NCBI GenBank assembly: GCA_050953835.1
Contig: JBMNNH010000008.1
Span: 41,013-105,012, forward strand
DNA from: Acetivibrionales bacterium
Lineage (GTDB): Bacteria; Bacillota; Clostridia; Acetivibrionales; JBMNNH01
Length of the DNA stretch: 64,000 nt
Reading direction: 5' to 3'
Shown: piece after piece, positions 1 through 27,280 of the stretch
Numbering within the stretch: position 1 is the first letter of the stretch
Layout: every line of letters starts with the position of its first letter
Program-made: the position numbers and the translations under genes
The notes under the pieces: generated by a model
Database searches by the model: none
Told to the model about the DNA's origin: nothing
Seen by the model: only the letters and a program-made list of their open reading frames with translations

Positions 1-625
1 TTGCAGAACCTCCTGTTGCAAGAATCACGGCTGTTAATGGGTTTTTCATGAGCTCTTCCGTAGCTTCCATAGTACATATATCCATACATCCAATAATGCC
101 TTTGGGTGCTCCTGCTGATAACGCTGCCTCTTCCATAATGCGGGCTGCTTCCATTGAACATTTCACCGCTCTGGGATGGGGTGAAAATACTATTCCGTTT
201 CTGGCTTTAAGAGATATAATAGATTTAAACATAACCGTTGATGTGGGATTGGTGGTAGGAATAATCCCTGCAATTACACCAACCGGTTCTGCAATCTCAA
301 CAATCTTCCTTGTTATATCCTCGTTTATGATTCCAGCGGTACGTATACCTTTAATATATTCGAATACATTTTTTGTGGCGAATTGGTTTTTTACAGTTTT
401 ATCATCCACAACTCCGAACCCTGTTTCTTCTACAGCCATTAAAGCCAGGCGCCTTGAATTTTCATAGCCTGCCAAAGCCATAGCTTCAACTATTTTGTCA
501 ACCTTTCCCTGATTGAATTGGGCAAATATCTCCTGGGCAGCCTTAGCCTTCTTCAACAAATCCCGTACCTTTTGTATGGAAAGAATGTCTTTGTCAAAAT
601 TACTGCTGTTATATAAATTATCCAC
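1..625 (-). CDS. CoA-acylating aldehyde dehydrogenase (PduP/EutE family), N-terminal part; gene runs off the left edge
   Basis: Absent from the ORF track (no stop inside the window). The minus-strand frame opens after TGA at 632-634. GTG at 625 has GAGGGA about 11 nt upstream. It reads VDNLYNSS..KAKAAQEIFAQFNQGKVDKIVEAM..EETGFGVVDDKTVKN..IAEPVGVIAGIIPTTNPTSTV..ARNGIVFSPHPRA, the N-terminal layout of BMC-type acylating AldDH. The + ORF 48..467 is its antisense shadow. Confidence 0.85.
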   Translation of the reverse strand, partial: MDNLYNSSNFDKDILSIQKVRDLLKKAKAAQEIFAQFNQGKVDKIVEAMALAGYENSRRLALMAVEETGFGVVDDKTVKNQFATKNVFEYIKGIRTAGIINEDITRKIVEIAEPVGVIAGIIPTTNPTSTVMFKSIISLKARNGIVFSPHPRAVKCSMEAARIMEEAALSAGAPKGIIGCMDICTMEATEELMKNPLTAVILATGGSA

Positions 626-640
626 AATAAATCACATCCC

Positions 641-1444
641 TCAATAACCTGACTTAATAGCACTCTGGGGACTATTTCCTTTTACAATTGCAATTCCCGA
701 ACTTGTGCCAAGTCTTGTGGCCCCCGCTTTTATCAATCTGTCTGCATCCTCACGGGTCTTTATCCCGGTTGATCCCTTAACCTGAACATCAGGTCCTACA
801 GTCTTCTTCATCAGTGAAATGTCTTCAGGGGTTGCGGCTCCCGGGGCCATTCCAGTACAGGTTTTTACAAAATCAGCCCCCGCATTTTTAGCCAAAAGGC
901 ATGCCTTGACTTTTTCTTCATCGGACAACAGTCCTGTTTCAATTATTACCTTAACCAGAGCCTGCTTAGCGGCTGCATCTACCACTGCCTTAATATCTTT
1001 TGAAACAAGGTCGTAGTCTCCGTCCTTCAATGCCCCGATATTTATAACCATATCAACCTCTTGAGCTCCGTTTGCAATTGCGTCCCTTACCTCCGCAGCT
1101 TTAACAAAGGGCGTATTAGCTCCCAATGGGAAACCTATGACCGTGCAAACCTTTACACCGCTTCCTCTTAATAATTCGGCGCAATAACGTACATGTGTCG
1201 GGTTGACACATACAGAAGCGAAGCCATACTCCTTTGCCTCATTGCAAAATCTCTCAATTGTCTTTCTGCTAGTATCAGGTTTTAATACAGTATGGTCGAT
1301 ATATTTCGAATATTCCCTGTTCTCACTGCGCATCTGGAACCCAAATCCGGTACCATCAAGCTTATACTGGCCGGACTGTCCCAGTTCTCTTATTACTTCC
1401 CGGGTAATTTCCTCAATTAAACTTTTAACTTCCATAACTGCCAC
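641..1444 (-). CDS. deoC: deoxyribose-phosphate aldolase (DeoC/DERA class I aldolase) with ~45-aa N-terminal extension
   Basis: 267 aa. The core [67 protein letters not shown] matches DeoC. The first ~45 aa ([26 protein letters not shown]..) are extra relative to stand-alone DeoC. Confidence 0.9.
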
Positions 1445-1540
1445 CTCACAACATGTTCTTTTTATTTACAAGCGTATAAACACTTAATACTACTTTATTA
1501 ATCAGCGATGGAAACAAAGTAGTACTGAGCTGTATAAGCT

Positions 1541-1837
1541 TTAGGCAAGCTTTAAGAATCCTTTAGTGGTTGAGATCTCGTCAACAATTCCGGCTAAAGC
1601 AATATCTACAGGAGCTAGCTGATTGTCAGCCCTTATCACCTGCCGTGCAGACCTTCCCTCAGCAATTGCAATTACAACATCTCCAATTCCCGCGCCCACT
1701 CCATCCACGGCAAGAACCTCAGCTCCTGCAGCCTCTCCATTCACATCGATAGGTTGTATAAGCAAAAGCTTATGCCCAATCAAGTTTGCATTTTTTTGCG
1801 TTGCAACTATATTCCCGACAACTCTGGCAAGAATCAT
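1541..1837 (-). CDS. BMC vertex (pentamer) protein, EutN/CcmL/PduN family, copy 3
   Basis: The track ORF (138 aa) starts at an upstream in-frame codon that would overlap the preceding gene. ATG at 1837 has GGGGGAG 4 nt upstream and gives 98 aa: MILARVVGNIVATQK..LLLIQPID..AVDGVGAGIGDVVIAIAEG..D.ALAGIVD, a BMC-P pattern. Confidence 0.85.
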   Translation of the reverse strand: MILARVVGNIVATQKNANLIGHKLLLIQPIDVNGEAAGAEVLAVDGVGAGIGDVVIAIAEGRSARQVIRADNQLAPVDIALAGIVDEISTTKGFLKLA

Positions 1838-1931
1838 ACTACTCCCCCACACTTCATAAGAATAAAGGCGGCTTCGCCACTTTTGCATGCACATGTGCCT
1901 TTCCAACCCGGGTAATAAAAAACACTGTGCT

Positions 1932-2198
1932 TCACGGCCGGTATACTGAATCAACAATTCCTATAATGCCAGCATCAGCACAGGCATTGGGATCCGGCAG
2001 CGGCATTGCACCCTCTTTACTCCGGGCATAAAATATTAATTCCCCATACCCCGCACCTATTGTATCAACTGCCACAATAGGATTGCCCTGCCGGTTGCCT
2101 GCTGAATCCACAGGCTGAATGACCAGTAGTTTTATTCCTTCAAGCCTTTCATCTTTATATGTAGCTACAGCACTTCCGATCACCTTCGCAAGATGCAT
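1932..2198 (-). CDS. BMC vertex (pentamer) protein, EutN/CcmL/PduN family, copy 2
   Basis: 88 aa: MHLAKVIGSAVATYKDERLEGIKLLVIQPVD..AVDTIGAGYGELI..AGIIGIVD. Same fold signature as its neighbours. Confidence 0.85.
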   Translation of the reverse strand: MHLAKVIGSAVATYKDERLEGIKLLVIQPVDSAGNRQGNPIVAVDTIGAGYGELIFYARSKEGAMPLPDPNACADAGIIGIVDSVYRP

Positions 2199-2200
2199 TT

Positions 2201-2503
2201 CTATATCCTCCTGTGCTTGTCGTACACCCTCTTGCCTTCTATATCAATATAATCAAGAATTCCCATTATTGTTGCATCAACAGGTGTACCGTTTGTAACG
2301 TTGGTTTGTCTAGCTGAGCTTCCTGTTACTACAAGAACAATTTCAGAAACCCCAGCACCAACAGCATCAATGGCTACAACTGGTTTTCCCTCCTCCTGAA
2401 GATTAAGAAGGCTTACAGGCTGAACAACCTGCATCTTTTTACCATTAAGTTTTTCATCCTTGGTAGTACAGACAACCGTCCCTATTACTTTTGCAGCATA
2501 CAT
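2201..2503 (-). CDS. BMC vertex (pentamer) protein, EutN/CcmL/PduN family, copy 1
   Basis: 100 aa: MYAAKVIGTVVCTTKDEKLNGKKMQVVQPV..AIDAVGAGVSEIVLVVTGSSAR..DATIMGILD. Confidence 0.85.
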   Translation of the reverse strand: MYAAKVIGTVVCTTKDEKLNGKKMQVVQPVSLLNLQEEGKPVVAIDAVGAGVSEIVLVVTGSSARQTNVTNGTPVDATIMGILDYIDIEGKRVYDKHRRI

Positions 2504-2603
2504 TTAAGGGCCTCCTTTTGCAATATTATGCCCGGGCAAGTGTTAAGCCACCAAGCCTAGTAACACCAGTTGTCAGAATAAACTAGCACAACCCACAGTT
2601 AAA

Positions 2604-3665
2604 TTAGAATTTATACATTTCAATAAACTTATCGAAGAATTCTTTGTTTATCACATATCTTGAAATCTGTCTGTCCCAAATTTTTGCCATTTCTGCCGCC
2701 AGCTTCTTGGGCGAATTAAGGAAAGCATCTGTTGAGCCTCCTGCCATATGAGGTGTTACAGTTACGTTTTTCAATGAAAGGAGAGGATAATCCTTTCCCG
2801 GAGGTTCAACATCAAACACATCCAGCGCTGCCCCTGCTATTTTGCCTTCACTCAACACTTCATACAATGCGGCTTCATCAACAAGTGCAGACCTTGAGGT
2901 GTTTATAAGATATGCTTGCGGCTTCATATGTTGCAGCATTTCCCTGTTTATAAGCTTTTCCGTTTCCTTTGTAAGCCTTGCATGAATTGTCACAAAATCT
3001 GATTCTCTCATCACATCTTCAAGAGAAACACATTCTACCCCATAGGGGACATCCTTCGCATATGGATCATAGCCAATAAGATTGACATCAAAACCTATGA
3101 GCCTTTTTGCCACCTTAAGGCCTATTTCTCCCAGGCCTACTATCCCTACCGTCTTGCCTGGCAAGTCAGGTATATAATCGGAATTTGGATAAATCCTTGT
3201 CCACTTCCCATTTTTTAAATCATTATGACCTCTTGCAATATTCCTGCATTCGGCAATCATCAAGCCAACTGTAAAATCAGCAACGGCATCAGAATTCCTG
3301 CCGGGTGTATTGAAGACCAGAATATTTTTTTCCTCAGCATACTTTAAATTAATATTTTCATAACCAGCCCTTAATACCCCTATTATTTTCAAGCTCTTGC
3401 ATATATCTATCATCTTCTTTGTTATTGTACAAAACTCTGTAATTATTATGTCTGCATTTTCCACAGCATCAATTATATACTGGGGCGGTTCATATGCATC
3501 GCTTCCACCATTTTCAACCAGAAGGTTAATGTTCTGGAGTTCCTGAAAATCCTTCAGTTGCCAGTCAACAGCATTAATCTCCACTCCCAGCCTTTCAAGA
3601 GGCTTAAACCCTTTCGTTATATACTCCTTTGGAATAAATAAATCTCCAATACCGACAAGCTTCAT
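2604..3665 (-). CDS. D-isomer-specific 2-hydroxyacid dehydrogenase family protein (NAD-binding)
   Basis: Nucleotide fold GIVGLGEIGLKVAKRL, plus HARLTKET and PHMAG regions typical of the family. The track start is TTG at 3683. ATG at 3665 has GGGGGTG 5 nt upstream and is preferred. Confidence 0.8.
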   Translation of the reverse strand: MKLVGIGDLFIPKEYITKGFKPLERLGVEINAVDWQLKDFQELQNINLLVENGGSDAYEPPQYIIDAVENADIIITEFCTITKKMIDICKSLKIIGVLRAGYENINLKYAEEKNILVFNTPGRNSDAVADFTVGLMIAECRNIARGHNDLKNGKWTRIYPNSDYIPDLPGKTVGIVGLGEIGLKVAKRLIGFDVNLIGYDPYAKDVPYGVECVSLEDVMRESDFVTIHARLTKETEKLINREMLQHMKPQAYLINTSRSALVDEAALYEVLSEGKIAGAALDVFDVEPPGKDYPLLSLKNVTVTPHMAGGSTDAFLNSPKKLAAEMAKIWDRQISRYVINKEFFDKFIEMYKF

Positions 3666-3756
3666 TACTGCACCCCCAAACAAGAATTTGCCACACTTGC
3701 ATAGCTGTTAATATCCAGTTGTTGGTATGAATCGATTTATTAGTGTCTTTATATTT

Positions 3757-4806
3757 CTACGGAACAAGCACTATTTTTACTGCATTGCCCCCTTTTATCT
3801 CATTCATTGCATCGTGAAATTTTTCCATAGGCATCCTGTGTGTAATCAGCGGCCTGAACCTGTCGGGATTGGCTTTAAGAAGCCTGACTGCTTCTTCAAC
3901 ATGCTTTACTGTTGAGTCGGATGTTCCGAAAACAATGAGTTCGTTATAGTGTATTGTCCTGCTGTTAATATTCAGGATTTCATCGCCTACAGGAAGACTT
4001 GCAAAAAATGATACATACCCCCCTTTTCTTGCATACATGGGTGCTTTTCCCTGCACCTCATTACTTGGTGCCGTTATTACAACAAGATCAAAACCCTCCT
4101 GTCCTGATAAATCCTTATATTCATTGTCGATATCCTTCGGCTGTAGCACTGTGAATCCCATTTTCTCAGCTATCTCGGTTCTTTTCCCCGGGAATTCCAC
4201 ACAGCAAATATTTTCCACTCCTCTTGCCTTCAGGGTTACAGAATGCAGCATTCCTAAAGGACCAAGCCCTAAAACCAAAGCTGATTCTATTTTATCAATG
4301 GGTATGCGGCTGAGCCCATTAATAACACAGGATAAAGGTTCGCTCAACGCAGCAACATCAGCATCCAGGTTTCCAACTTCTACAAGATGCTTTTGCCGTA
4401 CCGCCTTAGCCGGTATCCTGATATAGGGAGCCATGGCACCAGGATAATTAAATCCCATTGCTTCAGCCTTCCTGCATAAGTTTGTCCTTCCCTGTCTGCA
4501 ATAAACACATTCACCGCAACCTATTGTTGTGGCCATTGTTACTCTCTGACCGGGTGTATAGCACTCTACTCCATTTCCTATTCCCGTAATTATGCCACAG
4601 AATTCATGCCCCATAACCTTTGGCGGCTGTATTCTCGGATTTCCCTTAAAGTACGACTTTATATCAGTTCCACATATAGCACAGGACTCCACCTTAACTA
4701 CAACTTCACCTTCACCAGGGGAACTAATTTCTTCAGCATTTTCAATTCTGACGTCCAGAGGGGCATAATATGCCACACACTTCCCAGCGGCAGAGATATT
4801 ACCCAT
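3757..4806 (-). CDS. Zn-dependent medium-chain alcohol/polyol dehydrogenase (sorbitol/threonine dehydrogenase-like)
   Basis: GHEFCGIITGIG, Cys cluster CGECVYCRQGRTNLC, GLGPLGML. The track start at 4866 would overlap the upstream SDR by 59 nt. ATG at 4806 sits 1 nt after the SDR stop (TGAtATG). Confidence 0.85.
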   Translation of the reverse strand: MGNISAAGKCVAYYAPLDVRIENAEEISSPGEGEVVVKVESCAICGTDIKSYFKGNPRIQPPKVMGHEFCGIITGIGNGVECYTPGQRVTMATTIGCGECVYCRQGRTNLCRKAEAMGFNYPGAMAPYIRIPAKAVRQKHLVEVGNLDADVAALSEPLSCVINGLSRIPIDKIESALVLGLGPLGMLHSVTLKARGVENICCVEFPGKRTEIAEKMGFTVLQPKDIDNEYKDLSGQEGFDLVVITAPSNEVQGKAPMYARKGGYVSFFASLPVGDEILNINSRTIHYNELIVFGTSDSTVKHVEEAVRLLKANPDRFRPLITHRMPMEKFHDAMNEIKGGNAVKIVLVP

Positions 4807-4807
4807 A

Positions 4808-5587
4808 TCAGTGCATCTCCCTTCCTCCGGTAATATTAAAGGCCTGACCGGTACAATAATCTCCATTGAGAGTCAGGAAGTACACAAACTCGACGACATC
4901 CTCAATCTGGGTCAATCTCTTGAGAGGTATCTTTGCAGTAAATTTCTTAATAACCTCTTCTCTGGAAAGACTAAGATTTTTAATATAACCCTTGCTTACT
5001 GAATCCCAAACTCCTGTTTCATCAGTTATTCCAGGGCAAACACAGTTTACATTGATATTATACTCAGCCAGTTCAAACGCCAGGGCATGAGTCAAAGCTA
5101 TAATCGCTCCTTTTGCAGCTGAATAATGTGCCATAAGTGCAGAACCGGTTTTACCTGATTTTGATGAAAAGCTGATTATCTTTCCTGCCTTGTTTTCTTT
5201 CATACCTTTTACTGCTCCTTGGATACAAAATAAACAACCGCTGACATTTACCCTCATTTGTTTATCCATCTGTTCTGCCGTAATTTCTTCGAAAGGCCGT
5301 TGGTCTACTATACCAGCATTGTTGACTAACGCATAGACCGGACCCATTTGATTGTAAATCTCATCAAAACAATTTAATACCTTTTCACGATCGGTGATAT
5401 CCAATACATATGCTTTAACTTTATAGCCTTCTTTTGCAAGGCGTTCAGCCTGGTTGACAACCTCTGGGTTTATATCAATCATAACCACCCTTGCTCCATC
5501 TTTGCAATATCTTTCCGAAATAGCAAGGCCTATGCTCCTTGCCGCCCCTGTAACAACACATACTTTTTCTTTTAATGAAACACCCAT
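4808..5587 (-). CDS. short-chain dehydrogenase, sorbitol-6-phosphate dehydrogenase (SrlD)-like
   Basis: TGAARSIG, SSKSGKTG..YSAAKGA (YxxxK), and C-terminal KIPLKR..YCTGQAFNITGG parallel E. coli SrlD as recalled from memory. RBS AGGAGGGG lies upstream of the ATG. Confidence 0.8.
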   Translation of the reverse strand: MGVSLKEKVCVVTGAARSIGLAISERYCKDGARVVMIDINPEVVNQAERLAKEGYKVKAYVLDITDREKVLNCFDEIYNQMGPVYALVNNAGIVDQRPFEEITAEQMDKQMRVNVSGCLFCIQGAVKGMKENKAGKIISFSSKSGKTGSALMAHYSAAKGAIIALTHALAFELAEYNINVNCVCPGITDETGVWDSVSKGYIKNLSLSREEVIKKFTAKIPLKRLTQIEDVVEFVYFLTLNGDYCTGQAFNITGGREMH

Positions 5588-5619
5588 TGTAACCCCTCCT
5601 GATATATAGTGCTGAGTAC

Positions 5620-5648
5620 ATTATAACTTTTTCCATAACATTTGTCAA
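5620..5648 (-). promoter_or_regulatory. internal sigma-A-type promoter P2 (TTGACA - 17 nt - TATAAT) upstream of the SDR gene
   Basis: The minus strand reads tagaTTGACAaatgttatggaaaaagtTATAATgtactc. The -35 is 5643-5648 and the -10 is 5620-5625, both perfect consensus with a 17-nt spacer. Confidence 0.7.
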
Positions 5649-5678
5649 TCTAATTTTAACTTTTTCCATAACATTTGT
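5624..5678. repeat. two perfect 22-nt direct repeats (taactttttccataacatttgt) with 33-nt period
   Basis: Copies lie at 5624-5645 and 5657-5678. On the operon strand each reads ACAAATGTTATGGAAAAAGTTA. The promoter-proximal copy fills the P2 spacer. Confidence 0.9.
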
Positions 5679-5722
5679 TAGTAATGTATTTTGTAGTTGC
5701 CCCTATATGCAATAACCATATT

Positions 5723-6520
5723 TTACTTCCCTGTTACTATTTTTATTGAACGGCTCGCTCCAATTCTATTAGCTCCTGCTTCAATTAACGCTGCCGCCGA
5801 TGTGTGATCCTTTATTCCTCCGTCTGCCTTAATACCCATTTCAGAGCCTACAACCTGCCTCATCATTTTTATATCATCAACGGTAACACCCTCCGCCCTT
5901 GAGCCCGCTGCAACTTTTAAGTACTGAGCCCCTGCCATTTTTGCAATTACACCGATTCTTACCTTTTCTTCCTCCGTCAGTAATCCAAGGTCAACTACAA
6001 CCTTTATAACCGCATTTCCTTTTGCCGCATCCACCACAGACTCAATATCATGCTTTACTGATTTGAAATCACCATACTTCAGAAGCCCAACATTAACAGG
6101 CAAATCAATTTCTGAAGCTCCCTTTTCTATTACTTCGAGGGTTTCCATAACCTTGATGCTTGTAGTAGCGGTCCCAAAAGGAAATGCCACTGCTGTTGAT
6201 ACTTTAACTCCGCTTCCTTTTAGCATACCTGCGGCAAACTGAACAAAACATGGAGACAGGCTTACATTAGCAAATCCATAAGTCACCGCTTCTTCACAAA
6301 ATTTTATTACCATGTCTGGGGTAGCATCAGGCCTTATCATTGAATGTTCAATAAGGGCAGCCATATCTCTGTCATAATCCATGTCAATATTATGGGTTTT
6401 TAATATGCTTTGTGCTGATTGATTCAAAATATTTGAATTGCTATTAATATTTGAATTACCATTATTAAGAGCCTCTTCAACAACTTCATTTACAACTGCA
6501 TCAATAATATTGGTATACAT
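5723..6520 (-). CDS. DeoC/LacD-family class I aldolase, divergent paralogue, with ~65-aa N-terminal extension
   Basis: 265 aa. The core IEHSMIRPDATPD..GFANVSLSP..STAVAFPFGT..EIDLPVNVGLLK..IKVVVDLGLL..AQYLKVAAG..RIGASRS is collinear with the DeoC at 641-1444. The N-terminus is MYTNIIDAVVNEVVEEAL followed by an Asn/Ser-rich linker. Confidence 0.8.
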   Translation of the reverse strand: MYTNIIDAVVNEVVEEALNNGNSNINSNSNILNQSAQSILKTHNIDMDYDRDMAALIEHSMIRPDATPDMVIKFCEEAVTYGFANVSLSPCFVQFAAGMLKGSGVKVSTAVAFPFGTATTSIKVMETLEVIEKGASEIDLPVNVGLLKYGDFKSVKHDIESVVDAAKGNAVIKVVVDLGLLTEEEKVRIGVIAKMAGAQYLKVAAGSRAEGVTVDDIKMMRQVVGSEMGIKADGGIKDHTSAAALIEAGANRIGASRSIKIVTGK

Positions 6521-6579
6521 ATGAAACCACCTTTCTTCTTAATAGGATACAGATTACCAGCAAATGTATAACAAAAGTT

Positions 6580-6620
6580 ATAACAATTGTTATTATACTC
6601 TCTTTTCCATTTAAATTCAA
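6580..6620 (-). promoter_or_regulatory. sigma-A-type promoter P1 (TTGAAT - 17 nt - TATAAT) with overlapping 14-bp perfect palindrome ATAACAATTGTTAT
   Basis: The minus strand reads TTGAATttaaatggaaaagagagTATAATaacaattgttataac. The -35 is 6615-6620 and the -10 is 6592-6597. The palindrome at 6580-6593 covers the expected transcription start. Confidence 0.65.
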
Positions 6621-6689
6621 GTGGATTTCATAATAATGCAACCTTTGTGTCAAATCACTGTTTGAGCAAAATAGTTGCCTTTTTTATAT

Positions 6690-6731: not shown

Positions 6732-6760
6732 AAAAAAGCCCCGGTTAATCGGGGCTTTTT
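6732..6760 (-). terminator. bidirectional Rho-independent terminator downstream of the SLH-protein gene
   Basis: aaaaaGCCCCGgttaatCGGGGCttttt: a GC-rich 7-bp core stem flanked by A and T runs. Confidence 0.8.
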
Positions 6761-6795: not shown

Positions 6796-8382
6796 TTAAT
6801 CGTCTATTTCTATTTCTACAATAACATTGTTTACTATCTCAAATACTCCTTCCTGCCCTTCCCGAAGGTCATCAATGTCTGCATCATCACCATCTATTGT
6901 GATTTCTACATCGTCACTTACATAGTAAATAATATCTTCCCCATCAACTTCCAGTTCCAGTTTCCTACCGGAATCAAGAATTTCTTCTATCTCGCCTTCC
7001 ACTTCAAATTCATTGTCTTCTGCCTTGATGCTTACCACAACATTATCTTTAAGCTTAAGCTCAGCTTCCATTCCTTCAACTAGTTCATCCAGGTCAGCAT
7101 TTTTCCCTTCTATTTTCACATCCGCATCATCTGAAAGCTCATACCTCTGTTCATCAATCCATATATGGAATACACCACTCAAGTCTAATTCACGGGTAAT
7201 AATCCCTTTAATTTTCTTTTCTTTCTGCTCTTTTCTTTCCCTGTGGACATATATCTTCCTTGCCCTGTTTTTATTATCAACAGTTACAGTCACATCCACA
7301 CCGGTTTCCAGTTCGTCAAAATCTCCTCTTTCATTCTTGAAGAGAACAGTTACATTATCAAGTACCTGGAAAGTAATTCTCATTTTTTCTATTTCAATAG
7401 TTATTTCATTACGGCTTTTTTCGGTTAAAAACCCGGTATATTGACTGATAATTTTATTGTCTTCATCCTTTTCATCAATAACTTCAATAAATATTACCTC
7501 TCCATCTTCAACTTCAACTTCAACCATTAAGCCTTTACGCAAATCATCATAATCACTCCTGCCGTTTTTGCCGTATACAATTACATCATCCTCATCAACC
7601 GAAAAGGTCTTTAGATCCCTGCCATCCTTCAGGACTATCCTGTCATCATCAATAGCATATATAATCCCTCTGTATGTATCATCATCTATATCATTATCAA
7701 TCTTCTCATCCAAATTATAAAACAGTGTTGCCATTTCAGCCCTGGTCAGGGTACCCATGGGATTAAACCTTTGACCGTCCCCAACCATTATCTTCATTTC
7801 ATATACAAGGTACACATAGCCCACAGATCCTACCGGTACTGCAGCTGCATCTTTAAAAATGTCTTCAAGGTCTTCATCCATACTGTCTTCAGCTTCTTCT
7901 TCATATCCAAGAGCCCTTATAATGTATTTTGCCATTTCATGCCTTCTAATAGGTTCATTCGGATCAAAATACATCATATCCACATCATCAAGTATGCCCT
8001 TTTCTTCTGCCAGCGTAATATAGCCCTTTGCCCAGTTTTGTACGTTTTTACCCTTGTACTTCTTTGGCAGGCTGTTGATGGATAAGGCTTCGTCCTCCCA
8101 GCCCATAACTCTTAGGGACATAATAACCGCTTCAAGCTTTGTAACCTGGTTTTTAGGTAAAAACATGCCATTATTTCCTTTAACAATCCCCTTTGACATC
8201 AGCTTCTCGATTGCCTTCTGTGCCCACTTAACAGCGTCCGAATCAACAAAGAATTTTTTGGCTATCCCAGGGGGAACAGATTTACTGCTTCCTGTTTTCC
8301 AGGCTGGCTGCGCAAAAACTGCTGTTGACACCAGAGATACCGTTATAAATAGAGCCAGAATTGCAGATACAAACTTTTTCAT
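6796..8382 (-). CDS. secreted S-layer-homology (SLH) domain protein with acidic C-terminal repeat modules
   Basis: Signal peptide MKKFVSAILALFITVSLVSTAVFA. Three SLH-like segments (FVDSDAVKWAQKAIEKL.., NVQNWAKGYITLAEEKGI.., FKDAAAVPVGSVGYVYLVYE..). These are followed by at least 4 repeats of a D/E-rich ~40-aa module (DDVxVxxxGxxxDxDDLxxGxxVxVxVxDGxV). ATG at 8382 is preferred over GTG at 8391. Confidence 0.85.
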   Translation of the reverse strand: MKKFVSAILALFITVSLVSTAVFAQPAWKTGSSKSVPPGIAKKFFVDSDAVKWAQKAIEKLMSKGIVKGNNGMFLPKNQVTKLEAVIMSLRVMGWEDEALSINSLPKKYKGKNVQNWAKGYITLAEEKGILDDVDMMYFDPNEPIRRHEMAKYIIRALGYEEEAEDSMDEDLEDIFKDAAAVPVGSVGYVYLVYEMKIMVGDGQRFNPMGTLTRAEMATLFYNLDEKIDNDIDDDTYRGIIYAIDDDRIVLKDGRDLKTFSVDEDDVIVYGKNGRSDYDDLRKGLMVEVEVEDGEVIFIEVIDEKDEDNKIISQYTGFLTEKSRNEITIEIEKMRITFQVLDNVTVLFKNERGDFDELETGVDVTVTVDNKNRARKIYVHRERKEQKEKKIKGIITRELDLSGVFHIWIDEQRYELSDDADVKIEGKNADLDELVEGMEAELKLKDNVVVSIKAEDNEFEVEGEIEEILDSGRKLELEVDGEDIIYYVSDDVEITIDGDDADIDDLREGQEGVFEIVNNVIVEIEIDD

Positions 8383-8578
8383 AAATAACACCCTTTCCCA
8401 TAAATGATAATAAATATAAGTATAACCATAATTTTTTGGCTTATAATATATATGTTCGAAATAGGATTATTATTTTAAGGGTATTTTTAAAGATTATTTT
8501 GGTAATTTATTACAAGTTGCCGGTTTTTCTTCTAGTTCACTTCCTCATTGGAGACCAATACCACTATAACACAGATTG

Positions 8579-8874: not shown

Positions 8875-9252
8875 ATGATAAAAACAGAAGAAGAGGTTGA
8901 AGTATTTTTAGATAAAATACATGCAATTATTGAAGAAGATGAAAGAAACTTAGTACTTTTAGGTCGGACAAAGGGATTGGATAAAACAGATGTTTTTATG
9001 AAAGAATACAATATTAAGCATAAAATGATTTGTGATGAATTATTAAAATTAAGTGTATTGAATTATTCATATACAGAATATGATGATAACCCAAAGTGGA
9101 AACATGAAGAAATATGGGTATTTGGTAAGTTTTTTATGGTTGAAGGAATAGAATGCAACGAGACAATTTACATTAAATTAAAATTGCGAAATAACGTAAT
9201 ATGTATGTCGTTTCATCCCCAAGTGTTCAGTTTAAAATATCCATACTTATAA
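8875..9252 (+). CDS. putative toxin, MqsR/RelE-fold-like (125 aa)
   Basis: The C-terminal half (LSVLNYSYTEYDDNPKWKHEEIWVF....IYIKLKLRNNVICMSFHPQ) parallels E. coli MqsR (LSESDFYKSMTTYSDHTIWQDVY...VYLKITVIHDVLIVSFKEK, from memory). It lies immediately upstream of an MqsA-like gene, as in mqsRA. Confidence 0.5.
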   Translation: MIKTEEEVEVFLDKIHAIIEEDERNLVLLGRTKGLDKTDVFMKEYNIKHKMICDELLKLSVLNYSYTEYDDNPKWKHEEIWVFGKFFMVEGIECNETIYIKLKLRNNVICMSFHPQVFSLKYPYL

Positions 9253-9313
9253 TTATTTTTTAAAGATATATTTAGGTAATTAAATATTATTATACAATTT
9301 AGGGGGATTAATT

Positions 9314-10339
9314 ATGGAGGTTAAAACGGAGGATTTAAGTGTAATGATGCAATATTGTTACGAATGTGACGATAATGTAAAAGTAATAATTAAAGAAGAA
9401 AAAATAGAAACCGAAATAAAAGGAATATGCTTTTCTTATTTAGGTAAAGTTGCTTATTGTGAAAAATGCGGTAGTGAAGTGTATATAGCATCAATAAATG
9501 ACGAAAATACTGAAAAAGCAAATCAAAATTATCGAACAGCCGTTGGAATAATTCAAGTTAGTGAAATTCAAGAATTGCTTATTAAGTACAATATAGGACA
9601 AAAACCTCTAGCAAAATTATTAGGATGGGGAGAATCAACTATCATAAGATACTTGCAAGGTTTAACCCCTTCAAGGGAATATAGTAATAGATTGAAGGAA
9701 CTTTTTAATCCTATAAAAATGAAAGAATTGTTAGATTTCAATAAAAATGCTATTACTAATATTGCATTTAATAAAATTAATAAAAAAATTCAAGAAAATA
9801 TTGATTTAGTAAAAGGAAGTAATATTAAGCCTATAAAAGTTGCTAATTATTTTCTACAAAAGATGGAAGTTGACGCTGGCGAATCTATTACCCCATTAAA
9901 AGTACAAAAGCTAGTTTATTATTCTCAGGCATGGATGTTATCTATGTTTGATAGAATAATTTTTAATGAGGACTTCCAAGCTTGGCAGCATGGTCCAGTA
10001 ATGCCTGAGATGTATGTTTATTTTAAAAATCTTGGATATAACAGCAATGATAGCTTACCTAAAGTAAATAGTTTAAACTATATATTTGATGAGAATGAAA
10101 AATTAGTACTTGAATTTGTATGGAATGTTTACGGTAAATATGATGGCAAATATCTTGAAAAGATCACACATTCGGAAGAACCTTGGCAGATAGCATGGGA
10201 AGATCGCGAAGAAGTAGATAAAGGAAATTCAATTATTACAAAAGAAAGCATGAGACAATATTACAAGAAGTTAAAAAATGATCTCGACATTGAATTAGAC
10301 TCAATAAGCAATCTAAATAAGTTATATTGTTCTATATGA
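9314..10339 (+). CDS. putative antitoxin: MqsA-like Zn-ribbon + HTH fused to a Panacea (DUF4065/SocA-like) domain
   Basis: N-terminal CxxC...CxxC (YCYECDD..YCEKCGSEVY), then an HTH (QKPLAKLLGWGESTIIRYLQG). The C-terminal KVQKLVYYSQAWMLSMFDRIIFNEDFQAWQHGPVMPEMY is the DUF4065 signature. RBS AGGGGGA. Confidence 0.7.
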   Translation: MEVKTEDLSVMMQYCYECDDNVKVIIKEEKIETEIKGICFSYLGKVAYCEKCGSEVYIASINDENTEKANQNYRTAVGIIQVSEIQELLIKYNIGQKPLAKLLGWGESTIIRYLQGLTPSREYSNRLKELFNPIKMKELLDFNKNAITNIAFNKINKKIQENIDLVKGSNIKPIKVANYFLQKMEVDAGESITPLKVQKLVYYSQAWMLSMFDRIIFNEDFQAWQHGPVMPEMYVYFKNLGYNSNDSLPKVNSLNYIFDENEKLVLEFVWNVYGKYDGKYLEKITHSEEPWQIAWEDREEVDKGNSIITKESMRQYYKKLKNDLDIELDSISNLNKLYCSI

Positions 10340-10722: not shown

Positions 10723-12238
10723 ATGCTATCAATGACCCAAGTTAAGGATATCAGAAAAATGTATTTTGAGGAAGGGAAAAACATTAGTCAAATAGCCAGA
10801 GAAACCGGCTATGACCGTAAAACAGTGAAAAAATACCTTGACAAAGATGATTGGAATAAAGAGCTGCCAAAAGTAAAAAAGGAACCTGCATTTCCAAAGC
10901 TTGATCCATACAAGACGGATATTGATACCTGGCTAAGTGAAGATAAAAAAGCCAGGCGTAAACAAAGGCACACAGCAAAACGAATATATGAACGGTTGGT
11001 AGAGAAGTACAAGGATGACTTCGACAGTTCCTACAGAACCGTTGCAGGTTACGTGGCAATAAAGAAAAGAGAAATTTTTGGTGAAGATAAAGGTTTTTTG
11101 CCCTTAGAGCATATACCAGGCGAAGCACAAGCAGATTTTGGTGATGCTGATTTTTATGAAAACAGCAGGCTATACAGCGGCAAACAGTTAACTCTAACGT
11201 TTCCACACAGTAATAAGGGTTATACCCAAGTTTTCAAGGGAGAGAATCAGGAATGTCTATTCGAAGGCTTAAAAACGATATTTGAGCACATAGGCGGAGT
11301 GCCGCCAAGGATATGGTTTGATAATGCAAGCACCATTGTTGCTAAGATCATTAAAGGTGGAGGCCGAACCCTGACAGACGATTTCATGCGGTTTATGGAG
11401 CATTATCGCTTTGAAGCAGTCTTTTGTAACGTGGATGCCGGGCATGAGAAGGGTAATGTAGAAAACAAGGTCGGGTATCATAGGCGAAATATGCTGGTAC
11501 CGGTACCGAGGTTTGAAAGCATCGGTGAATTCAATAAAGAGCTCCTACTCCAGTGTGAAGAGGATGCCAAAAGGAAACATTACCGCAAAGAAGGAACAAT
11601 TGAAGAGCTTTACAGGGATGATGCCGCAGCCCTTTTGGGATTGCCTAAAGTAGTCTTTGATGCTAGCAAATACATAACGGTAAAGACAAATGGATATGGT
11701 AAATTTCTGCTTAACAAAGGCTTACACGAATACTCTGTAGCACCTAAATATGCAAATGCGTATGTATTGGTTAAGTTAACTGCTTTTCATGTAATAGTTC
11801 TTGATGAAAGCTATCGTGAGATAGTGTGTCATGATAGACTCTACGGTGACCACAAACAGCAGAGTATGAAGTGGTTGCCCTACCTTAACCAATTGGCACG
11901 ACGGCCAGGGGCATTAAAATATACAGGTATATATCATATGCTGCCACAGCCTGTAAAAGAGTATATGGAGAATATAAGCAAGCCAGACAAAGGAAAAGTG
12001 TTAAGGGCTATTGCTGATCTGACTCAGAAGAGTAGCTTTGAAAAGGCGGTGGAAACTGTCAGTACTGCGCTATCCTATGGTGCTCACTGATATAGACAGT
12101 CTAATAAATCTACACAGCCGGTTGCATAAAAGAGTACTGCAGCTTGAACCGGTGCGCCTGCCTGAGTATATACCGAAGTTAAAAAGGTATGAGCTTAACT
12201 TTATGGCCTATGATAAAAGTCTTGGAAGGCAGGTGTAA
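10723..12238 (+). pseudogene. istA: IS21 transposase IstA, interrupted by a +1 frame change near 12070-12090
   Basis: ORF 10723..12090 (455 aa) ends early. ORF 12038..12238, in the +1 frame, continues the homology to the C-terminus of the second IstA and stops 4 nt before istB. The joined length is 1516 nt, one nt more than the intact 1515-nt istA of copy 2. Confidence 0.75.
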
Positions 12239-12242
12239 AGGG

Positions 12243-12968
12243 ATGTTAGTATCTGATATTGCTGCTTGCTGTAAAAAACTTCGCTTCAGCAAGAATCTGG
12301 TGGAAATGTCGGGTAAAATACAAGCAGACAGCCATCAGGAATACCTGCTTAAACTTCTTCAAGCAGAGATTATGTATCGTGAGAAAGTAAGGAAGGATAA
12401 ACTATTAAAGAAAGCAGGCTTTTATACCATAAAGACCTTTGAGAGCTTTAGATTTGATGAAGTAACGCTCCCTGGCGATATCACCCCAGAATATCTTAAA
12501 GAATGCGAGTTTATCGCGAGCAAGACCAATATTGTTATGTATGGCAACATAGGAACTGGTAAGACTCATCTTTCCATTGCCTTAGGAGTAGAGGCCTGTA
12601 AGAAGGGTTTAGAGGTTAGGTTTTTCAGGACATCAGCACTTGTAAACAAGTTGGCAGAGCTAAAGAAAGCTGGGACATTATCTGCTTTTCTAAAAACACT
12701 TTATAGAGCCGACCTTTTGATCTGTGATGAGTGGGGTTATGTCCCTCTTGACCGGGTAGGAGCACAACTTCTGTTTGAAGTAATATCCGAGTGTTATGAG
12801 CGCAAATCGGTAATCATCAACACTAATATAGAGTTTTCAAGATGGGTAAATGTGTTCTATGATGAACAGATGACAGGTGCTATCATTGACCGAATACTCC
12901 ACCACTGCCACCTACTGCTATTTCCCGGTCAAAGCAACAGATTGAGGGAATCGGCAATAAACACATGA
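12243..12968 (+). CDS. istB: IS21 helper ATPase IstB
   Basis: Walker A GNIGTGKTH, Walker B LLICDEWGY, and C-terminal IIDRILHHCHLL. ATG at 12243 follows the istA stop. Confidence 0.9.
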   Translation: MLVSDIAACCKKLRFSKNLVEMSGKIQADSHQEYLLKLLQAEIMYREKVRKDKLLKKAGFYTIKTFESFRFDEVTLPGDITPEYLKECEFIASKTNIVMYGNIGTGKTHLSIALGVEACKKGLEVRFFRTSALVNKLAELKKAGTLSAFLKTLYRADLLICDEWGYVPLDRVGAQLLFEVISECYERKSVIINTNIEFSRWVNVFYDEQMTGAIIDRILHHCHLLLFPGQSNRLRESAINT

Positions 12969-13069
12969 GAATTTGGCTGGTAAAACTACTGGGGTTAACA
13001 TAAAAATTCCCCATCGGTGCCTGGGGAAAAATTTTTGCAAAAGTGAGGAATTTTCACTTGCAAAAAACA

Positions 13070-13402
13070 AACAGAAAAGAGTCATATGGCGACGGCAATC
13101 GGAGTTGCAGCTTGTTCCAGGAAAGAAGGTAAAATTTTATCGTACATCAGCTTTAGTTAACCTTTTGAGCGAGGCAAAGGCAAAAGGGGAATTACAGCGG
13201 TTTATGAAGCGATTGAGAAAAACAGATTTACTGATCTGTGATGAATGGGGGTATGTTCCCTTTGAAAAAGAGGGTTCACAGCTACTGTTTCAGGTTATTT
13301 CCGAATGCTATGAAAAAAGGAGCGTGATAATTACAACAAACCTGGTATTTAGTAAATGGAATGGTATTTTCTATGATGAAAAGCTGACAAGTGCAATTAT
13401 TG
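13070..13402 (+). pseudogene. istB remnant of a third IS21 copy, cut at both ends by IS21 copies 1 and 2 and internally frameshifted
   Basis: It reads (T)EKSHMATAIGVAACSRK, shifts frame, then KKVKFYRTSALVNLL..LLICDEWGYVPFEKEGSQLLFQVISECYEKRSVIITTN..YDEKLTSAII, and stops at the copy 2 end. It parallels IstB of copy 2 from Walker A to AIID. The first ~33 codons of track ORF 12973..13419 are IS1-end sequence, not real coding. Confidence 0.8.
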
Positions 13403-13532
13403 TGTTTTTGGTACAATGAAAATCGAGCATTCCGGAACTTAAAAAACCCTGCATAAAATGGAAACTCCATTGCCAACACCCAGAAAAAATATTACCCTTT
13501 TAGATGTCCACTCTAAAGGGGGTAAAGAAAGG

Positions 13533-15047
13533 ATGCTTTCAATGGAGCAAATATATCATATCAAATATCTGAAGAATCATGAAGAGAAATCACTTAGGGA
13601 GATTTCAAGAGAAACGGGACACCACTTTGATACTGTTAGAAAATACGTTGAAAAGGAAGACTTCAATATTGCGATGTCCCAGAAACAGAAAAGGAAGGGC
13701 AAGCTGGAACCATTCAAACATCTGATAGACCAATGGCTCAAAGATGATTTATCATCCTGGCACAAGCAGCGTCATACAGCACAAAGAGTATATGACCGAC
13801 TTAAAGAAATATATGGTGATGAGTTTGATGTATCGGACCGGTCTGTAAGAAAATATGTAGCAGCCAAGAAAGAGGAACTCTACAAAGGGAACGAAGGCTT
13901 CATTCCACTTATGCACTATCCTGGTGAGGCTCAGGCAGACTTTGGGCAAGCACAGTTCATAGAAAAAGGAATCAAATATGACGGGTATTACCTTACCCTA
14001 TCCTTCCCATATAGCAATGCAGGGTACACTCAGCTATTCAAATCCGAGAATCAGGAGTGTCTGTTAGAAGGACTAAAAAGTATATTTGAACACATAGGCG
14101 GCTCTCCGAGAGAAATATGGTTTGATAATGCATCAACCATAGTGGATGCGATCCGTAAAGAAGGAGAAAGAGATCTCAACAAAGGCTTCCAGCGCTTTAT
14201 GTTGCACTACAACTTCATAAGTAATTTCTGTAATGCTAATTCAGGCCATGAAAAAGGCCATGTAGAAAACAAAGTAGGTTATATAAGGAGAAACCTCTTA
14301 GTACCGATGCCGGAGTTCGATGACATAAGGGAATTTAACAGGGTGCTTTTAAACAGATGTGAGTTGGACATGCACCGGAAGCACTACAATAAGCCCGGAA
14401 CCATTGCGGAACTATTCAATGAAGATAAAGAAGCCTTAATCCGGCTGCCTAAGATTCCTTTTGAGGTATTCAGGCTTCAAGCTTCCAAAGCAGATAATTA
14501 TGGCAAAGTCAAATACGATAACAGAATATATTCCAGTTCTCCGGAACAAGCAGGAAAACAAGTGTGGGTTAAGGCTGGAGCATATGAAGTAGCTATACTG
14601 AATAGTGACTACAGAGAGATAATCAGGCATGATAGACTCTATGGAGAACAGAAAGAATCCATGAAATGGGTGCCGTATCTTGAGATAATGGCAAAACGGC
14701 CTAATGCACTAAAATATACAGGATTCTTTAAAGAACTTCCTACTACTCTTCAAGACTACTTCAATAAATGTAACTATGAAGAAAAGAAAGCTGCACTAAA
14801 AGCATTAGCCAGAATGATTGGTAACAGTGATATAAGCTTTGCAATCAAGGCATTCGAATATACAATAGGTAAAGGTCTTTATGATACAGACAGCATATGG
14901 GCGTATTACTGCCGGATAATATCCAAAGCTGCAGATGTAATTGATGTTAAAGTTCCAGATAAGGTTCCGGAACTTAAGGGATATCATACAGATACAAGTA
15001 TATATGATAAGCTTCTTTCCGGAGGTGGTAACGGATGGAGGCAATGA
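13533..15047 (+). CDS. istA: IS21 transposase IstA (504 aa)
   Basis: An HTH N-terminus (SLREISRETGHHFDTVRKYV) and a DDE region (..WFDNASTIV..HEKGHVENKVGY..). Start chosen at MLSMEQIY by analogy with copy 1 (MLSMTQVK) and an upstream purine-rich RBS. Confidence 0.9.
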   Translation: MLSMEQIYHIKYLKNHEEKSLREISRETGHHFDTVRKYVEKEDFNIAMSQKQKRKGKLEPFKHLIDQWLKDDLSSWHKQRHTAQRVYDRLKEIYGDEFDVSDRSVRKYVAAKKEELYKGNEGFIPLMHYPGEAQADFGQAQFIEKGIKYDGYYLTLSFPYSNAGYTQLFKSENQECLLEGLKSIFEHIGGSPREIWFDNASTIVDAIRKEGERDLNKGFQRFMLHYNFISNFCNANSGHEKGHVENKVGYIRRNLLVPMPEFDDIREFNRVLLNRCELDMHRKHYNKPGTIAELFNEDKEALIRLPKIPFEVFRLQASKADNYGKVKYDNRIYSSSPEQAGKQVWVKAGAYEVAILNSDYREIIRHDRLYGEQKESMKWVPYLEIMAKRPNALKYTGFFKELPTTLQDYFNKCNYEEKKAALKALARMIGNSDISFAIKAFEYTIGKGLYDTDSIWAYYCRIISKAADVIDVKVPDKVPELKGYHTDTSIYDKLLSGGGNGWRQ

Positions 15048-21375: not shown

Positions 21376-21483
21376 AACCTTCCAAGGCCGCATAATAAAA
21401 GGGACACTCCCTATTTAAGGAATGTCCCCTTTTGATGGCGTGCCCAGCAGGAGTCGAACCCGCAACCTTTTGATCCGTAGTCA
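21376..21483. repeat. 108-bp direct repeat copy B (overlaps the 3' 48 nt of intact tRNA-Arg)
   Basis: Identical to 8579-8686. Confidence 0.9.
21391..21433 (-). terminator. terminator downstream of tRNA-Arg
   Basis: On the minus strand the stem GGGGACA..TGTCCC is followed by ttttatt. It is duplicated within repeat copy A. Confidence 0.6.
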
Positions 21484-22977: not shown

Positions 22978-22992
22978 ATGTAAGGAGTATAT

Positions 22993-25649: not shown

Positions 25650-25660
25650 AGTACCACCTC

Positions 25661-27269: not shown

Positions 27270-27280
27270 AGCTTGTCCTC

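Follow-up and report, generated by a model that had tools for sequence, protein, structure and literature searches.

At the left end of a 64-kb stretch of DNA from an Acetivibrionales bacterium (assembly GCA_050953835.1, contig JBMNNH010000008.1; hereafter the window), a string of minus-strand genes encodes two aldolases of the DeoC family together with pentameric shell proteins of bacterial microcompartments (BMCs). Our analysis indicates that this string most probably belongs to the operon of an aldehyde-trapping metabolosome of the sugar-phosphate-utilising (SPU) class, in a variant that is conserved in Clostridia, has SPU4 as its nearest subtype and would be fed by an imported sugar or polyol rather than by DNA debris. 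The window string makes up the third of a complete BMC operon cluster (~20–25 kb) that lies next to the promoter, and we located the remainder of the cluster on an overlapping metagenome contig.

Nine consecutive genes run from position 6520 to position 1 (Table 1). Open reading frames (ORFs) and profile searches agree with a first-pass annotation of the DNA, made from the letters alone, on both their places and their order: a DeoC aldolase (DeoC1), a short-chain dehydrogenase (SDR1), a Zn-dependent alcohol dehydrogenase (Zn-ADH), a D-2-hydroxyacid dehydrogenase (2-HADH), three BMC pentamer (BMC-P) genes, a second DeoC (DeoC2) and an acylating aldehyde dehydrogenase (AldDH) that leaves the window. 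DeoC1, which clears the TIGR00126 cut-off, scores 23.0 on the Pfam DeoC model, 0.8 bits below the gathering score of 23.8. The three small proteins match the EutN/CcmL family (E 3e-28 to 8e-25), as the annotation had proposed, and are distinct from one another, with 41% identity between paralogues 1 and 2 and 37–40% between paralogue 3 and the other two. The AldDH fragment matches TIGR02518 with an E-value of 1e-83 across its 206 visible residues. A tblastn search of the whole 64 kb found no homologue of the shell hexamer (BMC-H), the tandem-domain shell protein (BMC-T), PduS or PduL, in line with the annotation's statement that BMC-H, BMC-T and PduL are missing from the window.

Six metagenome contigs encode a protein that matches the first pentamer exactly, and the longest of them, Logan SRR31061295_59211 (19,998 bp; loci labelled L001, L009 and L017), is 99.985% identical to window positions 1–6676. 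The exact DeoC1, DeoC2 and iron-containing alcohol dehydrogenase (Fe-ADH) proteins all lie on one 122,820-bp NCBI contig of a metagenome-assembled genome (MAG; Acetivibrionales bacterium), and the leftward continuation is therefore the same genome. After AldDH, which is 489 residues long in full, the Logan contig carries two BMC-H genes, PduL, an ORF of ~104 codons, an FGGY kinase, a second short-chain dehydrogenase (SDR2), a 103-residue protein without family match or counterpart in related loci, and Fe-ADH; past Fe-ADH follow a His_kinase-only protein, an AraC-type response regulator, a full histidine kinase and two Peripla_BP_4 binding proteins, and the contig stops at the start of the gene next to the second of these. 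The first BMC-H gene starts 32 bp past the AldDH stop codon, well inside the ~10 kb within which the first-pass annotation would have looked for one. Its expectations of a BMC operon, and of hexamer genes, PduL and regulators beyond the edge, are supported.

The definition of SPU loci dates from 2014 (PMC4207490), and their division into seven subtypes from 2021 (PMC8217296); a 2024 redefinition combines an N-terminally extended deoxyribose-phosphate aldolase (DERA) with AldDH and a BMC-P triplet in all loci (PMC11585597), and the N-extended DERA (pfam01791) is regarded there as the universal SPU signature (Dwyer et al. 2024, PMC11585597). The window string carries two N-extended DERA genes, an AldDH and three distinct BMC-P genes (37–41% identical), and the first-pass assignment of this combination to the SPU class agrees with all three publications (PMC4207490, PMC8217296, PMC11585597). 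General marks of a BMC are likewise present, namely BMC-P, BMC-H, the trio of AldDH, phosphotransacylase (PTAC) and alcohol dehydrogenase, and predicted encapsulation peptides. The annotation's further remark that the class has no biochemically characterised member is outdated: the DERA and ribose-5-phosphate isomerase (RPI) of SPU6, a Chloroflexi subtype, were purified and assayed in vitro in 2024, the only SPU enzymes assayed (PMC11585597).

Judged by its genes against published feature descriptions, the locus is an SPU-class locus, a conserved Clostridia variant nearest to SPU4. With that subtype it shares a Firmicutes host (Clostridiales sensu lato), an N-tagged DERA, AldDH, an N-tagged PduL-type PTAC, a contiguous triplet of divergent BMC-P genes, two similar BMC-H genes, the lack of a BMC-T gene in the main locus, an Fe-ADH (found in some SPU4 loci) and the lack of RPI, as in 11 of 29 SPU4 loci. 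No BMC-T gene occurs in the ~26 kb seen, a satellite locus being possible; SPU loci in general are expected to have one BMC-Ts or more, and the 2021 catalogue describes SPU4 without a consistent BMC-T (PMC8217296). As described, SPU4 has RPI (pfam02502), triose-phosphate isomerase (TPI, pfam00121), a full eut_hyp protein and an N-tagged AldDH on the EUT1/PduP branch. In contrast, neither TPI (PF00121) nor a full eut_hyp protein (TIGR02536) occurs in the window locus, which also lacks RPI, and its AldDH, TIGR02518/AdhE-like by sequence, ends in a C-terminal tail. The published descriptions also make no mention of the other genes found here, namely one for a second tagged DERA paralogue, three to four for polyol-type dehydrogenases, and those for an FGGY kinase, a CUT2 ABC system and a sugar sensor of three components. 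The comparison with published locus types that the first-pass annotation proposed thus supports the class and makes SPU4 the nearest subtype, but the likeness does not extend to RPI, to TPI or a full eut_hyp protein, or to an N-tagged EUT1/PduP-type AldDH.

Only the C-terminal motif of eut_hyp is found, on the ~100-residue protein encoded after PduL and on PduL itself. The first ~45 residues of this small protein, whose ORF was skipped by gene callers, match the C-terminus of TIGR02536, the N-terminus of EutQ and the C-terminus of PduM; against TIGR02536 it scores 31 bits (cut-off 152.6), with only the C-terminal ~45-residue motif of the model matched. It is orthologous to proteins of 95–111 residues at the equivalent position in four related loci (L012, L013, L007 and L020), and the PduL C-terminus bears the same eut_hyp/EutQ-N/PduM-C motif (...ITPLAKDAIRELKV...).

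With SPU6, the locus has in common the N-extended signature DERA with its catalytic Asp/Lys/Lys kept, the BMC-P triplet and a C-tagged AldDH on the EUT2/EUT3/GRM1/2 side of the AldDH tree. SPU6 differs in having RPI, a BMC-Tdp shell protein and one BMC-H, in lacking a PTAC and in being confined to Chloroflexi, and its DERA extension comprises ~70 residues (a helix and two strands), compared with a ~20-residue helix and a linker in the window DERAs. In the catalogue, SPU6 is the only subtype said to use the EUT2-side AldDH trunk (PMC8217296). A likeness to the EUT2 loci of Firmicutes is also evident in the TIGR02518 AldDH above the equivalog cut-off, the PduL-type PTAC, the EutM-like BMC-H proteins and the eut_hyp/EutQ-type motif. 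However, the window locus lacks the EutA/B/C lyase, EutL and EutT, has three BMC-P genes rather than one, and has DERA as its aldehyde source. A reading of the locus as an EUT system was rejected. EutB and EutC are absent from all loci with the window's gene order (window type).

To examine the aldolases, we aligned 62 DeoC1-type, 120 DeoC2-type and 56 housekeeping DERAs. Both window proteins have ~40–50 residues before the first conserved DERA motif, compared with 7–10 in housekeeping DERAs, and the N-terminal extensions pointed out in the first-pass annotation are visible both in alignments and in AlphaFold2 models. An amphipathic N-terminal helix of ~18 residues, followed by a linker of varying length and composition, is conserved in the DeoC1-type and DeoC2-type sequences (consensus MDLxxIDKIVKEVLEE and MEINKLIEEITxEVLKELG, respectively) and absent from 56 of the 56 housekeeping DERAs recovered. 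The model of DeoC1 (mean pLDDT, the per-residue confidence score, 89.6) shows a helix at residues 2–19, an Asn/Ser-rich linker at 22–44 with pLDDT <50 and a TIM barrel, while that of DeoC2 (mean pLDDT 88.3) shows a helix at residues 3–17, a disordered linker at 19–33 and a TIM barrel. The best Foldseek match of DeoC1 is the DERA of B. halodurans (template-modelling score 0.94). Housekeeping DERAs, such as BH1352 of that species (PDB 6d33), have the same fold, with 44–47% identity, and no N-terminal tag.

The catalytic Asp, the Schiff-base Lys and two further Lys are kept in all three groups, and with the Schiff-base Lys and the Asp/Lys relay in place, both window paralogues are predicted to be aldolases of the deoxyribose-5-phosphate (dR5P) type. 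DeoC2-type proteins match housekeeping DERAs at essentially all conserved positions apart from one Gly-to-Thr change in the Gly-Gly loop, and 95 of the 120, including the window protein, end in Tyr; by these residues, DeoC2 is a canonical SPU-type DERA with a housekeeping-like active site. DeoC1-type proteins, in contrast, carry ~25 substitutions at positions invariant in the other two groups, among them DHTLLK to EHSMIR in strand 1, DMV to DLP after the catalytic Asp, IIET to VVDL, KTSTGF to K(I/V)AA(T/G)(T/S) after the Schiff-base Lys and KASGG to KADGG (the Asp is D233 in the window DeoC1), and they never have the C-terminal Tyr tail. In E. coli DERA, the phosphate and the C3/C4 hydroxyls are held in a pocket built from the stretches that follow K167 and K201 together with the Ser-Ser motif, and acidic substitutions in that pocket (S238D) shift preference towards non-phosphorylated deoxyribose. 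The invariant Asp beside the phosphate-binding Gly-Gly loop and the loss of Ser/Thr after the Schiff-base Lys suggest a remodelled pocket in DeoC1, which we infer to be an encapsulated DERA paralogue that has neofunctionalised, with a change in its substrate specificity.

An LsrF-like identity was rejected for both DeoC proteins, which pass the DERA equivalog cut-off and match no LsrF model at E ≤ 0.001; a LacD-like reading was also considered and rejected. As a separate observation, 57 of the 120 DeoC2-type homologues (P0134, P0138, P0140–P0144 and others) have a C-terminal CxxCxxCxxxCP tail before the near-invariant Tyr, a ferredoxin-like 4Fe-4S half-motif that never occurs in DeoC1-type or housekeeping DERAs and of which the SPU literature consulted makes no mention; the window DeoC2 lacks the cysteines and keeps the Tyr. 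NCBI annotates the DeoC2 of the source MAG (P0121) as 230 residues, starting downstream of the encapsulation peptide, and the tag is therefore cut off, a concrete example of the start-site misannotation of BMC cargo raised by Dwyer et al. 2024 (PMC11585597). Gene callers use an ATG three codons past the GTG of a 267-residue version, and an exact look-up of this GTG-start version found no match.

The full-length AldDH scores 668.7 bits on TIGR02518 (cut-off 620.1), compared with 247.3 on the PduP/EutE model PRK15398 (cut-off 403), and its best PDB match is 3k9d (541 bits), PduP-type structures reaching 161–196 bits. The 3k9d chain is deposited as 'aldehyde dehydrogenase', and we take it to be the eut-operon enzyme of Listeria monocytogenes. 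The acylating function given to this protein in the first-pass annotation therefore stands, whereas its PduP/EutE type does not; by these scores it is TIGR02518/AdhE-like, of the EUT2 kind. An N-terminal extension of AldDH is excluded because stop codons lie directly upstream of its GTG start. At the other end, an amphipathic C-terminal tail is conserved in four loci (NEVFKAVEEFLRN, AEITRAIEELIKA, EEIERAVERYLSA and EEVIKAIDEMIKV). PduL has a ~30-residue N-terminal helix before its PTAC domain, also conserved across four loci. Judging from domain coordinates, the SDRs, Zn-ADH, 2-HADH, FGGY kinase and Fe-ADH have no tag-like extension. Encapsulation peptides, each a helix with a poorly conserved linker, are thus predicted on both DERAs, PduL and AldDH, which would place the aldolases, AldDH and PduL inside the shell and leave the dehydrogenases and the kinase in the cytosol.

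Among the remaining enzymes, SDR1 scores best on L-iditol 2-dehydrogenase (207.6, cut-off 338) and sorbitol-6-phosphate dehydrogenase (194.8, cut-off 307), both sub-threshold, and the label 'SrlD-like' given to it at first is to be softened; its sequence suggests a short-chain dehydrogenase of the polyol or polyol-phosphate type. For Zn-ADH, the best NCBIfam models are threonine 3-dehydrogenase and scyllo-inosose 3-dehydrogenase, and for 2-HADH the phosphoglycerate dehydrogenase and glyoxylate reductase models, all sub-threshold. A PDB sequence search under strict E-value limits found no close solved relative of SDR1, Zn-ADH or 2-HADH. For the FGGY kinase, the LsrK model gives 215.8 (cut-off 528) and XylB 227.6, and its best PDB relative is the AI-2 kinase LsrK (5ya0, 151.7 bits), compared with 116.6 for a xylulokinase. 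The sensor, comprising a binding protein, a LytS/YesM-type kinase and an AraC-type regulator, suggests together with the CUT2 importer that a monosaccharide or polyol is taken up from outside the cell. The substrate is best read as a free (deoxy)sugar or polyol that the cell imports, with free 2-deoxy-D-ribose, another deoxy-sugar or a deoxy-polyol as candidates. The first-pass proposal of a (deoxy)sugar, polyol or sugar-phosphate substrate is strengthened by the FGGY kinase, SDR2, the CUT2 transporter and the binding-protein, kinase and AraC-regulator system in the conserved locus, while falling short of proof.

Next, we compared related loci. The order from DeoC1 through Fe-ADH and the regulators is identical in Anaerobacterium chartisolvens (GCA_003337415.1, QPJT01000006.1 at about 184–206 kb; L010/L012), a cultured carrier of the operon, and in a Clostridiales MAG lineage (L013/L014) whose DERA occurs in 228 collection blocks. 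Identity between the window organism and L012 or L013 is 52–95% for DeoC1 through Fe-ADH and 39–44% for the short His_kinase-only ORF. The dehydrogenase gene order is conserved across genera at 67–83% identity, and SDR1 orthologues are 66–83% identical in L012, L013, L015 and L016. In L013, the genes directly upstream of the DeoC1-type gene encode a complete CUT2 ABC transporter, with its binding protein, double ABC ATPase and pair of BPD_transp_2 permeases, and CUT2 ABC genes lie downstream in L017 and L020. In L020 (173 blocks), which also has a SorC-type regulator, the DeoC1-type gene comes after the BMC genes and has the sensor binding protein on one side and the transporter on the other. 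A genome-collection scan with DeoC1 returned two loci only. GTDB does not use the source MAG as a representative.

A second architecture, here called type A, was found in L015, L016 and L022, the loci of the DeoC2 homologues P0210, P0194 and P0237. It has in common with the window type two DeoC genes, SDR1 and SDR2 orthologues (56–68% identical), an FGGY kinase and a CUT2 ABC transporter. Specific to it are a PduP/EutE-type AldDH with an N-terminal tag (in L015 and L016, PRK15398 scores of 648–649 and an N-terminal helix), PduS/PduT, a class II aldolase, a ribulose-phosphate 3-epimerase homologue and a SorC-type regulator; the transporter, kinase, regulator and epimerase homologue lie upstream of the BMC part. 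A canonical SPU4 locus with RPI and TPI was not found among the DeoC2 homologues, the three homologue loci examined all being of type A. The association of DERA-type BMC genes with sugar import, a kinase and SDRs in independent gene orders argues against chance adjacency.

A further relative, L007 (Bacillota bacterium OH_PBB_98, JAEWDM010000016.1), has a glycyl-radical enzyme ORF and a radical-SAM activase at 54–2304, directly upstream of a two-DERA BMC with PduS/PduT and an EutQ-like cupin. The glycyl-radical ORF comprises only the C-terminal part of the PFL-like domain, and the locus may be a GRM/SPU hybrid or carry a decayed glycyl-radical enzyme.

Under the reading we prefer, an extracellular monosaccharide or polyol would be sensed by the binding-protein, histidine kinase and response regulator system and imported by the CUT2 ABC transporter, after which the untagged cytosolic dehydrogenases and the FGGY kinase would convert it to a 2-deoxy-aldose or its phosphate. 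This intermediate would enter the shell, where the tagged DERA or DERAs would split it into acetaldehyde and glyceraldehyde-3-phosphate; with the divergent DeoC1, the second product may be non-phosphorylated or a different triose or tetrose. Tagged AldDH would then oxidise acetaldehyde to acetyl-CoA, PduL would convert this to acetyl-phosphate and recycle CoA, and Fe-ADH would regenerate NAD+ through ethanol formation.

Several points weigh against this scheme. RPI (PF02502) is found neither in window positions 1–6620 nor in the 13.3 kb beyond, nor in L012, L013 or L007. RPI is said to be common to SPU subtypes generally, although it is reported absent from SPU5 and from 11 of the 29 curated SPU4 loci (PMC11585597). 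The locus contains no recognisable step that makes a 2-deoxy centre, such as a dehydratase, leaving the link from sugar or polyol to DERA missing, and an already deoxygenated substrate is therefore favoured; nor is a deoxyribokinase-type (PfkB) kinase present. The best PDB match of the binding proteins is a ribose-binding protein at an E-value of 1.5e-9, their NCBIfam matches being far sub-threshold. Fe-ADH has no obvious tag, and encapsulation is a prediction.

The published model for all SPU subtypes derives dR5P from DNA breakdown (PMC8217296, PMC11585597). Applied here, it would make the locus a canonical DNA-scavenging organelle that receives dR5P from deoxynucleosides in the cytosol, with the adjoining sugar genes serving an unrelated pathway, and DeoC2, which keeps its C-terminal Tyr and every housekeeping-invariant residue bar the one Gly-to-Thr change, would suit such a role. 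However, the dehydrogenase genes are located inside the operon, with a tagged DERA gene on one side, the shell genes on the other and gaps of 0–135 bp, in an order conserved across genera; SDR1, SDR2, the FGGY kinase and the CUT2 transporter recur in the differently arranged type-A loci; and no nucleoside phosphorylase, phosphopentomutase or nucleoside transporter occurs in any locus examined. We consider this alternative unlikely, and the repeated linkage to sugar genes calls the DNA-scavenging model into question for such organelles.

The AldDH, an equivalog-level TIGR02518 match closest to 3k9d, together with PduL and the EUT2-like small motif protein, could instead betray an acetaldehyde organelle derived from EUT2, in which the aldehyde comes from elsewhere, for example from a glycyl-radical enzyme (as the gene pair upstream of the two-DERA BMC in L007 would allow) or from ethanolamine lyase, or in which the DERAs condense acetaldehyde onto a triose phosphate. 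A condensing role for a BMC-associated DERA has reportedly been proposed for Atribacteria. Window-type loci, however, contain no EutB/C, glycyl-radical enzyme or diol dehydratase, the sole tagged aldehyde-generating enzymes are the two DERAs, and AldDH, PduL and alcohol dehydrogenase form the standard catabolic core for aldehyde removal, which makes a EUT2-derived source improbable.

Import and phosphorylation of an AI-2/DPD-like 1-deoxy-pentodiulose or small diketone sugar by an lsr-like system with LsrF-like DeoC proteins is very improbable: among solved structures LsrK is closest to the FGGY kinase, and the type-A set of CUT2 ABC transporter, FGGY kinase, SorC regulator (also present in L020), ribulose-phosphate 3-epimerase homologue and DeoC comprises the protein families of the lsr operon, but the kinase falls far below the LsrK cut-off and scores higher on XylB, both DeoC proteins are DERA equivalogs without an LsrF match, no LsrG-like gene is present in the locus, and a protein organelle for a micromolar signal molecule seems implausible.

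With the SPU class catalogued before and an assay of its signature enzyme published, the locus is not categorically new. To our knowledge, no SPU organelle has been studied in vivo so far. New with respect to the SPU literature consulted are the conserved two-DERA architecture with a divergent tagged paralogue, the EUT2-type AldDH in a DERA organelle, and the close and recurrent association with genes for polyol-type dehydrogenases and for the sensing, import and phosphorylation of sugars. No paper describing the variant came up in literature searches, and the accessible supplement text of the 2021 catalogue contains none of the genus names Anaerobacterium, Acetivibrio and Ruminiclostridium (PMC8217296). 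A more far-reaching proposal, which we regard as a serious possibility though short of probable, is that window-type and type-A loci represent an undescribed BMC pathway for an imported free sugar or polyol, in which two encapsulated DERA-family aldolases act jointly and DeoC1 is neofunctionalised for a non-phosphorylated or different 2-deoxy-aldose. If true, the assumed physiological role of SPU organelles, which are among the most widespread BMC classes, would be revised, at least in Firmicutes. The binding-protein sensor, the ABC importer, the connecting kinase and dehydrogenases, the two distinguishable encapsulated aldolases and the cultured host offer handles on the SPU substrate. DERA-type organelles have also recruited either major AldDH lineage, the N-tagged PduP type in type A and the C-tagged EUT2 type in the window type, a clear case of modular core-enzyme exchange between BMC types.

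Table 1. Features of the two-DERA operon and its control regions. Positions are those of the window unless another contig is named; 'leftward contig' is Logan SRR31061295_59211.
Feature	Position	Strand	Size	Evidence or remark
Bidirectional terminator, GC-rich hairpin with flanking A/T runs	6733-6760	-		12-bp stem, 6 GC pairs
Promoter-like TTGAAT-17-TATAAT	6620-6592	-		~70 nt upstream of DeoC1 start; consensus match, putative function
DeoC1	5723-6520	-		TIGR00126 deoC 201.6 bits (cut-off 117.3)
Exact direct repeat ACAAATGTTATGGAAAAAGTTA	5657-5678 and 5624-5645	-	22 nt	two copies
Perfect sigma-70 consensus promoter TTGACA-17-TATAAT	5648-5620	-		upstream of SDR1; proximal ACAAATGTTATGGAAAAAGTTA copy in spacer
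SDR1	4808-5587	-		adh_short E 1e-53, domain from residue 8
Zn-dependent medium-chain dehydrogenase (Zn-ADH)	3757-4806	-	349 aa	ADH_N (E 2e-26), Glu_dehyd_C, ADH_zinc_N
D-isomer-specific 2-hydroxyacid dehydrogenase (2-HADH)	2604-3665	-	353 aa	2-Hacid_dh_C E 3e-61
BMC-P paralogue 1	2201-2503	-	100 aa	EutN_CcmL E 3e-28
BMC-P paralogue 2	1932-2198	-	88 aa	EutN_CcmL E 8e-25
BMC-P paralogue 3	1541-1837	-	98 aa	EutN_CcmL E 7e-25
DeoC2	641-1435	-		TIGR00126 284.5 bits (cut-off 117.3)
CoA-acylating AldDH, 5' part	1-625, off left edge	-	208 codons	GTG at 625; TIGR02518 281.7 bits
BMC-H pair	leftward contig		103 aa and 91 aa	79% identical; EutM model 131-132 bits, slightly below cut-off 133
PduL/PTAC	leftward contig		285 aa	PRK15070 270.8 (cut-off 209)
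ORF skipped by gene callers	L001 9120-9431, ~2.4-2.75 kb past window left edge		~104 aa	between PduL and FGGY kinase
FGGY kinase	leftward contig		493 aa	
SDR2	leftward contig		253 aa	
Fe-ADH	leftward contig		392 aa	PF00465
His_kinase-only protein	L017 11356-11832		158 aa	precedes AraC-type response regulator
AraC-type response regulator	leftward contig		537 aa	
Sensor kinase	leftward contig		489 aa	HAMP/His_kinase/HATPase
Two Peripla_BP_4 binding proteins (L017 14904-16004 and 16281-17420)	leftward contig		366 and 379 aa	

The longest ORF of Zn-ADH reaches 4866, and the start at 4806 was adopted from gene calls on the matching metagenome contig. The hairpin in Table 1 ends the upstream gene for a protein with an SLH domain (6796–8391) and forms the right border of the locus; given this terminator and the promoter-like site ahead of DeoC1, the right boundary chosen in the first-pass annotation is sensible. 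The repeat ACAAATGTTATGGAAAAAGTTA matches twice in the 64 kb, compared with 0.02 matches expected, and near-identical copies stand at operon heads in both architectures (L013 5173–5259 in L013/L014, L022 8451–8472 and L016 12000–12021). Together, the repeat and the site at 5648–5620 are a candidate operator for a shared regulator and a candidate internal promoter. The only RNAs that Rfam recognises in the window are three tRNA genes outside the locus (21439–21512, 42374–42462 and 42475–42562); the locus itself has no riboswitch or other match.

In every window-type locus, a 152–162-residue protein with a His_kinase domain (PF06580) alone precedes the AraC-type regulator (L017 11356–11832, L012 19059–19517, L013 17726–18193 and L020 5345–5803). 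These short proteins have neither HATPase nor transmembrane part, and a full-length kinase is present besides.

The flank upstream of DeoC1 consists of ABC transporter or sensor genes in the relatives and of the SLH protein and mobile elements in the window organism, whose transporter genes lie on the opposite side of the operon from the mobile elements. The SLH-domain protein (6796–8391, minus strand, 531 residues), which is unrelated to BMCs, has a long Asp/Glu-rich C-terminal region with repetitive beta-like segments (...VEVEVEDGEVIFIEVID...). At 8875–10339 on the plus strand, a 125-residue protein without family match is followed by a 341-residue protein that contains a SocA/Panacea antitoxin domain (E 2e-19). 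The two may form a toxin-antitoxin pair, placed between the flank of the BMC operon and the insertion sequence (IS) elements. The latter, at 10723–15757 and 19323–20183, comprise two different IS21-family elements in tandem and an IS3-family integrase-core ORF; the first IS21 element has a 455-residue ORF without Pfam match (IstA-like by sequence) and a 259-residue IstB (PF01695), and the second a 529-residue ORF with a Mu-transposase C-terminal domain and a 240-residue IstB. Ordinary Clostridia content occupies 22000–35077 (DnaD/DnaI-like, YpeB/SleB, NlpC/P60, SbcCD-like, PspA, GntR, GHMP kinase and SipL), and the chromosomal content is consistent with a spore-forming host.

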